Source of the DNA: Escherichia coli
GTDB taxonomy: Bacteria > Pseudomonadota > Gammaproteobacteria > Enterobacterales > Enterobacteriaceae
Assembly (NCBI RefSeq): GCF_024223415.1
Contig: NZ_CP100500.1
DNA length: 64,000 nt
Strand: one strand, 5' to 3'
Positions 32,661 through 33,851 of the stretch are shown here, one piece after another. Under the pieces are notes generated by a model. It ran no database searches, was not told the origin of the DNA, and worked only from the letters and a program-made list of their open reading frames with translations. Numbering within the stretch: the first letter of the stretch is position 1; each line of letters opens with the position of its first letter. The translations under genes and the position numbers were made by a program.

Positions 32661-33851
32661 CGGAAAGGTGGCGGGGGATTCACGGAGATAATATCTGTCT
32701 GAAATTGTTTTGAATCGATGGGATTGTTGCGTATTAACATGAAGGAGATCAGGACTTATCCGTTACTGGGTGATCTCCTTCCATGAAAATACGCCGTTAT
32801 TGTTAAACAGCAGGCTGATTTCTCCGTAAAGGGGAAAATATTTATCGGCTGTATGATTATCAGGTGTGTCTGTGTTTACTGCTGTGAGTATTTTTTAGTG
32901 TATTGTGGGGGAGATGTCAGTGGGAGATATTAAATTTACGTTTATAATTATCTTACTTCTTCTGTGTGTTTTTTATAAGAGTGCACACGTAATGATATCT
33001 GTTGATACCATGTGGTTAAGTGTTTCCCTTCCTGGTCATGCGTAATGATTAAATGCTTTTGTGACACCATTCTTCCGGTCTGAATATTTATCCCGTTCTT
33101 TTTTATTTGTGCAGTGATACTGTCGGAAGAGAATTCAGTAATGTGAGGTGTCCTGGTCAGGATAATATCTGCTGAGATATTATTAGTTGAGTGTGTTTTT
33201 ACTGAGCAAAAGCTGGCTTTTAATTCCTGTACTGAAACACTGTCGCTCGTCCGGGGTTAACTGAAACTGGATGATGATGTAAAATGAAGGCTGTTTTTGT
33301 GTTTGTCGAAGAAGTGTTATTTTAATCCATTCTCATCATTGGCTGGCGATTATACAGAAGTATTTGAAGAAAAAATGGTGCATTTTATCTGTGTCAGCAG
33401 GGAAGAAGTATTTTATTGATGTATCAGTATTAAATGGTTTTTGTTATTTATAAAAATGTCATCCTGTCCATAGAATATTGTACTCAGCATTCAGTGCAGG
33501 AACTGTAGTCTTCTTTATTTTATTCTTCTTCAGGAGGGGGGTGATTCCTGAAGGCGTTATTCCCGGTGTTCTGTTTATGATTCTTCCCGGCAGGAAACCG
33601 GTATCTGCAATACCCGGGATGATGCTTTTTGTTCGTACGTGGTTGTGTAAAATTTGAATAGTGGATGTGCTCCGAAGGGAAGGAGGGGACACACAGATTC
33701 ATTTTGTCTTTCTTCAGCAGCAAAATACACTGTGGTTATTATTTAACCATTAAATCAACAAAAATTTTTACCTCATATTGATTTGACTGCTATTTTTGCT
33801 ATTAATAGCCAGAATTGCAGTGCTTTTATATCTGTGTATAGTGAGATTACT

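Follow-up and report, generated by a model that had tools for sequence, protein, structure and literature searches.

An AT-rich gap between divergent GTPase and yfjI genes of an Escherichia coli genomic island, probably an H-NS/Hha-silenced spacer with function at both ends

In the window analyzed here, a 64,000-nucleotide stretch of Escherichia coli DNA, a GTPase family gene and the DUF3987 gene yfjI point away from each other across a long intergenic gap (Table 1). The left end of the gap serves the GTPase gene and the right end serves yfjI, whose ATG lies at 33852; DUF3987 is a helicase domain (PMC11724360). The first-pass annotation described an AT-rich non-coding stretch between these two genes, and this description proved real, with shifted limits. 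Because the annotation of relatives starts the GTPase at the ATG at 32621, not at the GTG at 32660 where the ORF begins, the true gap measures 1230 nt, which is 39 nt longer than first reported. Its GC content is 0.38 (62% AT), compared with 0.499 across the window. The several T-tracts noted earlier are also present, with 18 tracts of four or more T against 13.1 in shuffles. Additionally, A-tracts of four or more are in excess (11 against 3.9±1.7 expected in shuffles), and their phasing gives a weak peak at 9.75 bp. The gap is carried by approximately 1,860 of 5,426 complete E. coli genomes, and RefSeq places no annotation within it in any E. coli match.

Table 1. Positions in the window of the gap, its flanking genes and its internal features
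Feature	Positions	Strand	Basis or description
Whole divergent intergenic gap	32622..33851	.	ORF list and RefSeq annotation of relatives
GTPase family gene, 290 aa	31749..32621	-	Pfam MMR_HSR1 and RefSeq annotation of relatives
GTPase-proximal module	32622..32719	-	Common to other GTPase-paralogue islands
Intrinsic-terminator-like hairpin, CCCCGCCACC..GGTGCGCGGGG then UUUUGUCUUUUUU	32638..32676	-	Fold -21.3 kcal/mol, z -2.8
66-nt palindromic hairpin, GCGTATT…GATCTCCTTCCATGAAAATACGC	32729..32794	.	Insertion relative to variants L003 and L045
Variable AT-rich body	32795..33785	.	A mosaic with frequent indels, lacking any conserved ORF or structure (variant alignment, ORF survey, fold z-scores)
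Coding-like 3-base periodicity patch	33501..33851	+	T in excess at phase 2, counted from the yfjI ATG; no codon-phase substitution bias; possible gene fossil
36-bp palindrome, ACTGCTATTTTTGCTATTAATAGCCAGAATTGCAGT	33786..33821	+	31-66 nt upstream of the yfjI ATG; unique in the window
yfjI (DUF3987), 494 aa	33852..35336	+	Pfam PF13148, E 1e-95

Based on the ORF survey and the alignment of island variants, the gap contains no coding-like ORF, as the first-pass annotation had stated. Its longest start-to-stop ORFs encode 77, 67, and 59 aa; none of the gap ORFs stays open across five island variants, and neither the individual ORFs nor the six-frame translations match a Pfam family. In a protein-coding test, substitutions were spread evenly over the codon phases (24/26/24 and 21/15/16). 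Among the variants, the flanking coding sequences are 91-97% identical, while the gap diverges by 11.8/17.3/22.4%, compared with 13.3/12.0/18.8% at the fourfold sites of yfjI, and about 10% of the gap alignment columns are indels. These values suggest that the bulk of the gap drifts at about the neutral rate represented by yfjI synonymous sites. Despite the many indels, however, the gap measures 1182-1331 nt in all variants; this steady length hints at a constraint on length or content and could count against a plain spacer. Beyond the variants, tblastn of the six-frame gap translations against all fetched loci matched only the hairpin and the palindrome, both at the DNA level. In 16 genome loci and 10 viral loci with yfjI relatives, the palindrome is the only part in common, and the plasmid and phage collections have in common with the gap only its first 59 nt or the hairpin.

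These observations weigh heavily on the idea that a small hydrophobic protein, which could be a toxin-like membrane peptide, is made in the gap, for example from a 59-aa ORF at 33478-33657 or a 46-aa ORF at 32905-33045. Hydrophobic ORFs do exist on the plus strand, an AGGAGG motif lies at 33533-33538, and one variant carries a 113-aa ORF over the same DNA. However, frameshifts or stops interrupt both ORFs in other variants, and in a 26-codon core ATG ORF aligned with its CFT073 counterpart, 11 codons differ, of which 1 is synonymous. With no family matches and no codon-phase bias in the substitutions, we regard such a protein as extremely improbable.

Another reading is a decayed gene. Most of the gap would then be a former plus-strand gene, co-oriented with yfjI, broken by frameshifts and stops, and probably encoding a T2-rich membrane-type protein; this reading overlaps the spacer reading and does not exclude it. 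In every variant, the plus strand is G+T-rich (GC skew about +0.2, AT skew about -0.15), a composition that a sense strand with many G1/T2 codons would have. According to phase tables made for the window and for variants L002 and L003, the patch next to yfjI is periodic, and 1 of 5000 shuffles attained its period-3 signal-to-noise ratio of 4.89. Further patches, periodic in other phases, lie at 32832-32951 and 33072-33191, and 8 of 38 windows reached p<0.05. Furthermore, the +1 frame of 33283-33851 contains 4 stops in 190 codons, against approximately 12.7 estimated from base composition, and variant L045/L046 keeps a 113-codon ORF open in this region. A strong and conserved G+T skew combined with 3-base periodicity is unexpected in plain spacer DNA and may mark a fossil gene. 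Nevertheless, the nearly open +1 frame has no homologue outside the island region among 5.8 billion proteins, its two matches being this locus from a different variant and a chimeric contig; the absence of Pfam matches in any frame and the even codon phases (24/26/24) also argue against a gene. Hydrophobic "peptides" arise from any T-rich DNA, and the 9-bp-spaced GCTATT units of the palindrome contribute part of the periodic signal. Collectively, a fossil gene is possible but doubtful.

The left end of the gap is shared with other islands. The GTPase-proximal module has matches of 91-98% identity in thousands of genomes, restricted to query positions 1-55/59. In other GTPase islands, a 383-aa gene lies upstream of the GTPase gene, and the module includes the last codons of this gene and its terminator; in locus L005, the hypothetical 383-aa CDS ends inside the shared module. 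Shared identity ends at 32719, and the remainder of the gap has no homology to the 383-aa gene. A decayed copy of that gene was rejected as the source of the gap, with no tblastn or blastn similarity past this position. Within the module, a hairpin with a 10-bp stem ends 17 nt before the GTPase ATG, and its core was also found by a terminator scan. Read from 32676 to 32638, a GC-rich hairpin stands directly before a U-tract, the arrangement of an intrinsic (Rho-independent) terminator, and we predict one here.

Just past this predicted terminator lies the 66-nt hairpin, which folds at -28 to -30 kcal/mol (z -5.4 and -6.5). It is missing from L003 and L045, and ATTGTT flanks it on both sides in the window, a possible 6-bp duplication for which only one insertion is comparable. 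The hairpin occurs in 2,720 of 5,426 E. coli genomes at 1-6 places each, at 41 plasmid places, and in two phage records. Phages P-EibC and P-EibA have the same element annotated as a stem_loop immediately 3' of eaaC; further copies lie after cdtC on pVir68, after Ag43 in strain D10, and near IS21. Several copies in such unrelated contexts may point to a MITE-like mobile palindromic element. Its wider interest lies in its recurrence, at low copy number, 3' of the virulence cargo genes eaaC, cdtC, and Ag43, and in the filled/empty-site polymorphism that it has left here.

Both left-end structures bear on the earlier proposal of a regulatory RNA, which could be a long G+U-rich 5' leader of yfjI or an sRNA ending at the minus-strand terminator before the GTPase gene. 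The strong predicted terminator (32676 to 32638) is not preceded by any gene in this island, and the minus strand from 32860 to 32610 folds far better than shuffles (z -5.95). Moreover, in 13 of 16 homologues the plus-strand RNA of the palindrome forms a better fold than the complementary strand. However, the minus-strand structure is explained by the relic terminator and the inserted hairpin missing in L003 and L045, and the long-range pairing around the hairpin is not conserved in L003. Only 32590-32860 and the palindrome give a fold signal; folding within 32860-33700 is not above that of shuffles on either strand. At 33530-33700, where short repeats had been reported, there are a few small hairpins of unremarkable folding (z -1.4 to -2.0). 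The gap as a whole holds no tandem repeats, and its direct repeats are two-copy families of 10-39 nt, often chance occurrences, so the reported repeats did not hold up. A cmscan of 31000-35000 at E<=10 placed no Rfam family within the gap, in agreement with the first-pass impression that no known RNA family was recognizable. Outside the gap, the scan matched IS102/IsrC at 31398-31634; a ciliate-telomerase match was dismissed as chance (26.5 bits against a gathering score of 52). Finally, promoter-like hexamer pairs are at chance level (5 against 3.6 expected from shuffles), and no promoter was located in the gap. With a bulk that is unstructured and diverges in a neutral-like manner with frequent indels, the gap is very unlikely to encode a regulatory RNA.

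At the right end, the 36-bp palindrome is the sole deeply conserved element of the gap. It precedes nearly all of the yfjI homologues sampled across Enterobacterales. An alignment of 16 regions upstream of yfjI shows no variation in its core TGCTATTT…TAGC; the alignment takes in Escherichia (including K-12), Dickeya, Pectobacterium, Brenneria, Erwinia, Siccibacter, Citrobacter, Kluyvera, and others, whose YfjI proteins are approximately 50% identical to that of the window. In these regions, the palindrome lies 59-77 nt from the yfjI ATG and has a hairpin potential of -9 to -21 kcal/mol. It is also found in 9 of 10 IMG/VR loci, in Yersinia and Edwardsiella, and, with one change, in Salmonella (TGCTATTA). 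The palindrome stays beside yfjI whatever precedes it, whether one of two different AlpA-type genes, other DNA, or the 1.2-kb gap; in the distant homologue L021, a different palindrome takes its place. Conservation of this kind suggests a cis-regulatory element of yfjI, most likely an operator or a 5'-leader hairpin through which the helicase gene is controlled. A binder of the palindrome is presumed, and literature searches with its sequence and with the CFT073 locus tags found nothing relevant. DecR/YbaO, which a SELEX list links to yfjI, was considered and rejected, the cyuP upstream region having no such motif. In CP4-57-type islands and satellites, the palindrome is a marker located 5' of yfjI-family helicase genes and may be a useful target for the question of how replication of these elements is switched on.

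A remnant origin had also been suggested, and the palindrome beside yfjI offers the sole small opening for it. As a replication origin, the gap or the palindrome would serve the YfjI helicase and the island's Gp2/G2P-like YfjJ. DUF3987 proteins are helicases required for satellite replication (PMC11724360, PMC10803314), and the canonical module order is alpA, palindrome, yfjI, yfjJ. YfjJ proteins touch the Pfam family REP_ORF2-G2P (26.5-31.4 bits against a gathering score of 27.8), and both the travel of the palindrome with yfjI and its replacement by another palindrome in L021 fit such a site. The structure model of YfjI has a C-terminal winged-helix-like unit and a weak MCM helicase likeness, but the model is of low confidence (pLDDT 65.6), has no fold match at E<=0.001, and identified no DNA-binding specificity. 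The gap has no iterons, tandem repeats, or DnaA-box cluster, and the origins of Gram-negative PICIs are located 3' of rep, where an AT-rich core sits between two sets of iterons (PMC6092414). The palindrome center resembles the M13 gpII nick region at 11 of 14 positions, and shuffled genomes reach 11-13, which is chance level. A 17-bp inverted repeat 3' of yfjI was likewise rejected as a PICI-style origin; it is not kept in other variants. An origin in the gap is therefore quite improbable, and the suggestion does not stand for its bulk. Slightly less improbable, though still unlikely, is a broader scheme in which the palindrome would be the cis control point of an uncharacterised replication module, AlpA - YfjI (MCM-like DUF3987 helicase) - YfjJ (G2P-like), common to CP4-57-type islands across Enterobacterales. 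It would act as a helicase-loading or nicking origin or as an RNA hairpin gating helicase expression, and the gap would be the remnant of an inversion that carried yfjI and its site away from alpA to a position beside a dead gene.

The relation of the gap to xenogeneic silencing was also considered. The AT content and the A/T tracts are those of H-NS/Hha-silenced xenogeneic DNA, and the island encodes its own Hha paralogue. Strain EAEC 042 carries the gap at 98.9% identity along its full 1230 nt, and there an hha-null mutation raises expression of EC042_2241, the GTPase gene beside it, 6.2-fold and an hns mutation 4.8-fold (PMC6480617). These figures concern the neighboring gene, not the gap itself; de-repression of an adjacent gene, reported for a nearly identical copy, is what silenced DNA would display. 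Since the same gap stands before a GTPase gene that is de-repressed in hns and hha mutants, an H-NS-silenced promoter region is the best supported, albeit indirectly, of the three readings offered by the first-pass annotation. No promoter was located, and the 10-bp high-affinity H-NS motif is not enriched in the gap. Binding of H-NS to the gap DNA and the promoter positions are presumed.

Collectively, the results indicate, with a probability of roughly 0.6, that the gap is an ordinary AT-rich spacer separating two divergent genes of an E. coli genomic island in decay, mostly in neutral drift, forming an H-NS/Hha-silenced control region with function at both ends. Clear constraint is limited to the module with the predicted terminator at the left and the palindrome at the right. 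It would be the junction of two CP4-44/CP4-57-type island modules, a GTPase-Ag43 cargo and a yfjI/AlpA/Hha/Gp2 module, and would act as a long divergent control region silenced by H-NS/Hha. The left ~100 nt travel with the GTPase gene and hold the predicted intrinsic terminator, which would be inherited from a lost upstream gene. With the 66-nt hairpin probably inserted just past it, a minus-strand transcript would have to cross both before reaching the GTPase-Ag43 genes. The right ~70 nt hold the palindrome that travels with yfjI across Enterobacterales, and the middle ~950 nt drift near-neutrally, gathering indels and small palindromic insertions. As a whole, such a gap changes little, being another long H-NS/Hha-silenced AT-rich island spacer that annotators were right to leave empty.

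Compared with known systems, the gap resembles PICI/SaPI origins (PMC6092414) in being AT-rich and in its place next to the gene of a satellite-type replication helicase, within an island of the int/alpA type. In contrast to those origins, which sit 3' of pri-rep, it has no iterons and lies 5' of yfjI; with no tandem repeats and only two-copy short families, an iteron-type origin (PICI/SaPI, P4 ori/crr) was rejected. The 66-nt hairpin is the same element as the E. coli 3'-end stem-loop after eaaC in P-EibC. Similar to REP/MITE-like elements, it is repeated, at low copy, with filled and empty sites. However, it has only 1-6 copies per genome and no known transposase link, so it may spread by recombination rather than transposition. 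For the island itself, the closest counterparts are "region 2" of EAEC 042 and the hha2/hha3-flu-yeeR-irmA clusters (PMC6480617, PMC9431211), which belong to the same island family, are AT-rich, have their own Hha paralogue, and in 042 contain the same DNA; those papers treat the genes rather than the gap. Finally, the alpA-yfjI region of K-12 CP4-57 and its Enterobacterales counterparts carry the same palindrome (K-12: CCTGCTATTTCCGCCATTAATAGCGGAATAGCC) at the same distance from the yfjI ATG. In CP4-57, yfjI follows alpA in the same orientation across a spacer of approximately 130 nt. In the window, by contrast, yfjI is oriented away from the AlpA-like gene, and upstream of the palindrome lie 1.16 kb of unrelated AT-rich DNA.

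An AT-rich non-coding stretch does lie upstream of the DUF3987 gene (yfjI), as the first-pass annotation had it. In three relatives, RefSeq starts the neighboring GTPase gene at the ATG corresponding to 32621, and the gap between the two divergent genes therefore covers 1230 nt. Its GC content is 0.38 (0.499 for the window), with 18 runs of T4+ against 13.1 expected and 11 of A4+ against 3.9. Of 5,426 complete E. coli genomes, 2,794 contain DNA of the gap and 1,857 have at least 80% of it, and no feature is annotated over it among the E. coli records listed. The surrounding E. 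coli island is of the CP4-44/CP4-57 type. yfjI is intact in the window (494 aa) and an annotated frameshifted pseudogene in the closest relatives, L001 (7192-8674) and L007 (3761-5244), and Ag43 is cut by an insertion sequence in the window; both are among the signs that the island is decaying, and the gap is an ordinary drifting AT-rich junction within it. The IS3-family element that truncates Ag43 holds two ORFs (29697-30227 and 30332-31054; Ag43/IS region 29697-31454), and the IS102/IsrC match sits between the GTPase gene and the Ag43 start, in the Ag43 regulatory/phase-variation region with its GATC-rich hairpin.

Features of the gap and its surroundings (window positions unless a locus is named)
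Feature	Location	Strand	Details
Truncated Ag43 start	31454->31011	minus	~147 codons, then interrupted by IS3-family element
IS102/IsrC RNA	31398-31634	minus	Rfam RF00124, 73 bits, E 2e-11
GTPase gene	31749-32621	minus	start per RefSeq relatives
Gap	32622-33851		between GTPase gene and yfjI
Left-end module	32622-32719		91-98% identity with GTPase paralogues of other islands, thousands of genomes
Predicted strong terminator	32676->32638	minus (GTPase strand)	10-bp GC-rich stem, then UUUUGUCUUUUUU; -21.3 kcal/mol
66-nt imperfect palindrome	32729-32794		-28 to -30 kcal/mol; z -5.4 and -6.5
Other copies of 66-nt element	L004 2501-2564; L006 3001-3067; L027 1501-1564; L028 (strain D10) ~1480-1535; L030 1501-1559
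Second palindromic insert, 71 nt	L002 ~6379-6450; L007 ~2879-2950		corresponds to window position 33040/33041
36-bp palindrome ACTGCTATTTTTGCTATTAATAGCCAGAATTGCAGT	33786-33821		GCTATT units 9 bp apart and inverted copies
yfjI/DUF3987	33852-35336	plus	Pfam E 1e-95
200-aa hypothetical gene	beyond yfjI	minus
AlpA-type HTH gene	beyond yfjI, after 200-aa hypothetical gene	minus
Hha paralogue	after AlpA-type HTH gene
'Inovirus Gp2 family' (YfjJ-like) gene	after Hha paralogue

The gap is not a gene, a known RNA or an iteron origin. Stop-to-stop frames of at least 25 codons, traced across five island variants, are all disrupted in one or more lineages, through stops or frameshifting indels, except for short frames with no usable start; neither the ORFs nor all six frames of the gap match Pfam, and substitutions between variants are distributed evenly over the three codon phases. 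The Rfam search at E<=10 is empty inside the gap. Sliding 120-nt folds rise above shuffles only at 32590-32860 and, weakly, at the palindrome near yfjI, and the minus-strand RNA of the variable middle, or body (32795-33785), is nearly unstructured. It is a relic terminator plus the 66-nt insert, not a dedicated RNA, that makes minus-strand 32860->32610 fold so well (z -5.95). Moreover, promoter prediction yields σ70-like hexamer pairs in the gap at chance frequency; with Rfam empty and the fold signal outside the body, the regulatory RNA suggested earlier finds no support. Neither does a remnant origin in the bulk of the gap, since tandem repeats are absent and direct repeats form short two-copy families only; what was noted as short repeats at 33530-33700 amounts to a few small hairpins of unremarkable folding.

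In an alignment of the window and four further variants of the island, identity was 97% for L007, 88% for L002 (CFT073), 90% for L008, and 83% for L003; L001 is essentially identical (99.9%), while a sixth, more distant metagenomic variant (L045) reaches 75.5%. In aligned columns, the gap diverges by 11.8% (window-L002), 17.3% (window-L003), and 22.4% (L002-L003), and the corresponding values at fourfold-degenerate sites of yfjI are 13.3%, 12.0%, and 18.8%; indels affect ~10% of gap columns in the three pairs. The flanking coding sequences retain 96-97% (GTPase) and 91-93% (yfjI) identity. Within the gap, identity is arranged in blocks: L003 matches the window at 94-100% from 33594 on and at 61-81% upstream, and L002 shows the opposite pattern; this indicates mosaics produced by recombination rather than constraint at particular sites. 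Given these mosaics and a divergence close to that of the fourfold sites, the bulk of the gap drifts at about the neutral rate.

The two strands differ strongly in composition in all variants, with a GC skew of +0.19 to +0.21 and an AT skew of -0.13 to -0.17, and the plus strand is therefore G+T-rich. The last 350 nt of the gap carry a coding-like 3-base periodicity (signal-to-noise 4.89, matched by 1 of 5000 shuffles), with T at phase 2 relative to the yfjI ATG at 52 of 99 positions; the segments 32832-32951 and 33072-33191 are periodic too, more weakly and in other phases. A decayed plus-strand gene for a membrane-type protein, as a rival or a complement to the spacer reading, would jointly explain the skew, the periodicity, and the AT-richness, and the plus-strand frame with T at codon position 2 is poor in stops (4 in 190 codons against ~12.7 estimated from base composition) and translates as hydrophobic segments. 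However, among 5.8 billion proteins searched, the only hits were the same locus in another variant and a chimeric contig, and the 9-bp repeat spacing of the palindrome contributes part of the periodic signal; we consider such a gene rather unlikely. Predicted protein P0002 (ENA contig, 140 aa), whose final 35 residues match the +1 frame of the gap and whose remainder is an unrelated protein, is probably a chimeric assembly. Another long gap with no annotation separates the AlpA-like gene from the Hha paralogue (36626-37320); it has a strong GC skew (+0.2 to +0.34) with a positive AT skew, an asymmetry unlike that of 32622-33851.

The arrangement is the same in EAEC 042, where the gap is 98.9% identical across all 1230 nt. 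In RNA-seq of this strain, all duplicated genes of the island ('region 2') are more than 2-fold up in hns and hha-null mutants, and EC042_2241, a putative GTP-binding protein adjoining Ag43 according to the supplement, is 6.2-fold up in the hha-null mutant, the highest hha-null value, and 4.8-fold up in hns (PMC6480617); flu is EC042_2242 (PMC9431211). Because of this de-repression, the 62% AT content, the excess of A-tracts, and the Hha paralogue encoded by the island, putative H-NS/Hha silencing of promoters in or around the gap is the functional statement with the most support, all of it indirect. Among the three ideas of the first-pass annotation, an H-NS-silenced control region is the only one that the data indirectly favor, and against it the 10-bp H-NS high-affinity motif is not enriched in the gap.

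In another GTPase-paralogue island (L005), a 383-aa gene terminates within the segment matching the left-end module. This similarity ends at 32719, and beyond it the gap shows no protein or DNA similarity to that gene, and a decayed copy of it was rejected. The predicted terminator ends 17 nt ahead of the GTPase ATG, and the gene would therefore be reachable only by read-through; we infer that this requirement would hold its expression low. The 66-nt hairpin is absent in L003 and L045, where the empty site holds a single ATTGTT, and is flanked by ATTGTT on each side in the window; the element may therefore be a small hairpin module that moves or recombines. Among 5,426 E. coli genomes, 2,720 carry it, each at 1-6 places. 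It recurs at the 3' ends of accessory genes: immediately past the stop codon of eaaC in phages P-EibC and P-EibA (labeled stem_loop by the depositors), and downstream of cdtC (pVir68) and of Ag43 (strain D10). The 71-nt insert contains a perfect palindrome with 14-bp arms (CGATCACGGTTTGG/CCAAACCGTGATCG) and has GCGTA…TACGC ends similar to those of the 66-nt element; downstream of Ag43 in strain D10, the 66-nt element is joined to a relative of this insert. Additionally, RNA transcribed from the minus strand of the body would be rich in C, poor in G, and unstructured, a composition favoring Rho, and together with the two hairpins it would shield the GTPase-Ag43 genes against transcription coming in from the right.

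In yfjI relatives from other genera (~50% protein identity), the only matching part of the gap is the 36-bp palindrome, which occurs once in the window. Across 16 aligned yfjI upstream regions (Escherichia, including the K-12 alpA-yfjI spacer, Dickeya, Pectobacterium, Brenneria, Erwinia, Siccibacter, Citrobacter, Kluyvera, and others), its core TGCTATTT…TAGC is invariant and always lies 59-77 nt upstream of the ATG. The palindrome is also found in nine of ten IMG/VR loci and in Yersinia and Edwardsiella, with one change in Salmonella (TGCTATTA), and it accompanies yfjI behind two different AlpA-type genes, unrelated DNA, and the 1.2-kb gap. At the two most distant homologues, L021 (48% identity) and L039 (44%), TGCTATTT is missing; L021 has a different palindrome with 13-bp arms at the same position (GTATCAGTTGTGA…TCACAACTGATAC, ~3900-3960), which suggests that site and YfjI protein co-vary, and L039 has no comparable palindrome upstream of 2474. 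Arm changes are mirrored, and hairpin potential (-9 to -21 kcal/mol) is therefore retained; the plus-strand RNA version is more stable in 13 of 16 cases, the sequences not being independent. These features would suit an operator, an RNA hairpin in a leader or between cistrons, and an origin alike. A literature search on the palindrome sequence found nothing. A likeness of its center to the M13 gpII nick region (11/14) was rejected as no better than elsewhere in M13 or in shuffled genomes. Separately, a perfect 17-bp inverted repeat (TTCATCACCGATATTCA / TGAATATCGGTGATGAA) lies at 35396-35467, 60-130 nt past the yfjI stop, along with a third copy of GGTGATGAA; the repeat is absent from CFT073-type and L003-type islands. 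Small new items are the palindrome conserved at yfjI and the hairpin element of low copy number.

DUF3987 is an experimentally demonstrated 5'-3' helicase domain (PMC11724360), and in PICMI satellites it is the 'prim' gene, which is required for replication and forms an early regulon with alpA and up1 (PMC10803314). The AlphaFold model of YfjI has low confidence (pLDDT 65.6); it gives weak MCM and winged-helix matches and nothing stronger, and its predicted end is a helix-strand-helix-helix-hairpin unit. YfjJ proteins carry YagK_YfjJ_C and a weak, near-threshold Pfam match to REP_ORF2-G2P. In Yersinia, Edwardsiella, and Salmonella (L047, L048, and L049), the module runs alpA - palindrome - yfjI - yfjJ in one orientation, and in Edwardsiella the GTPase gene comes next in the same direction. 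The island in the window has the same genes as this module, but they are scattered and partly inverted.
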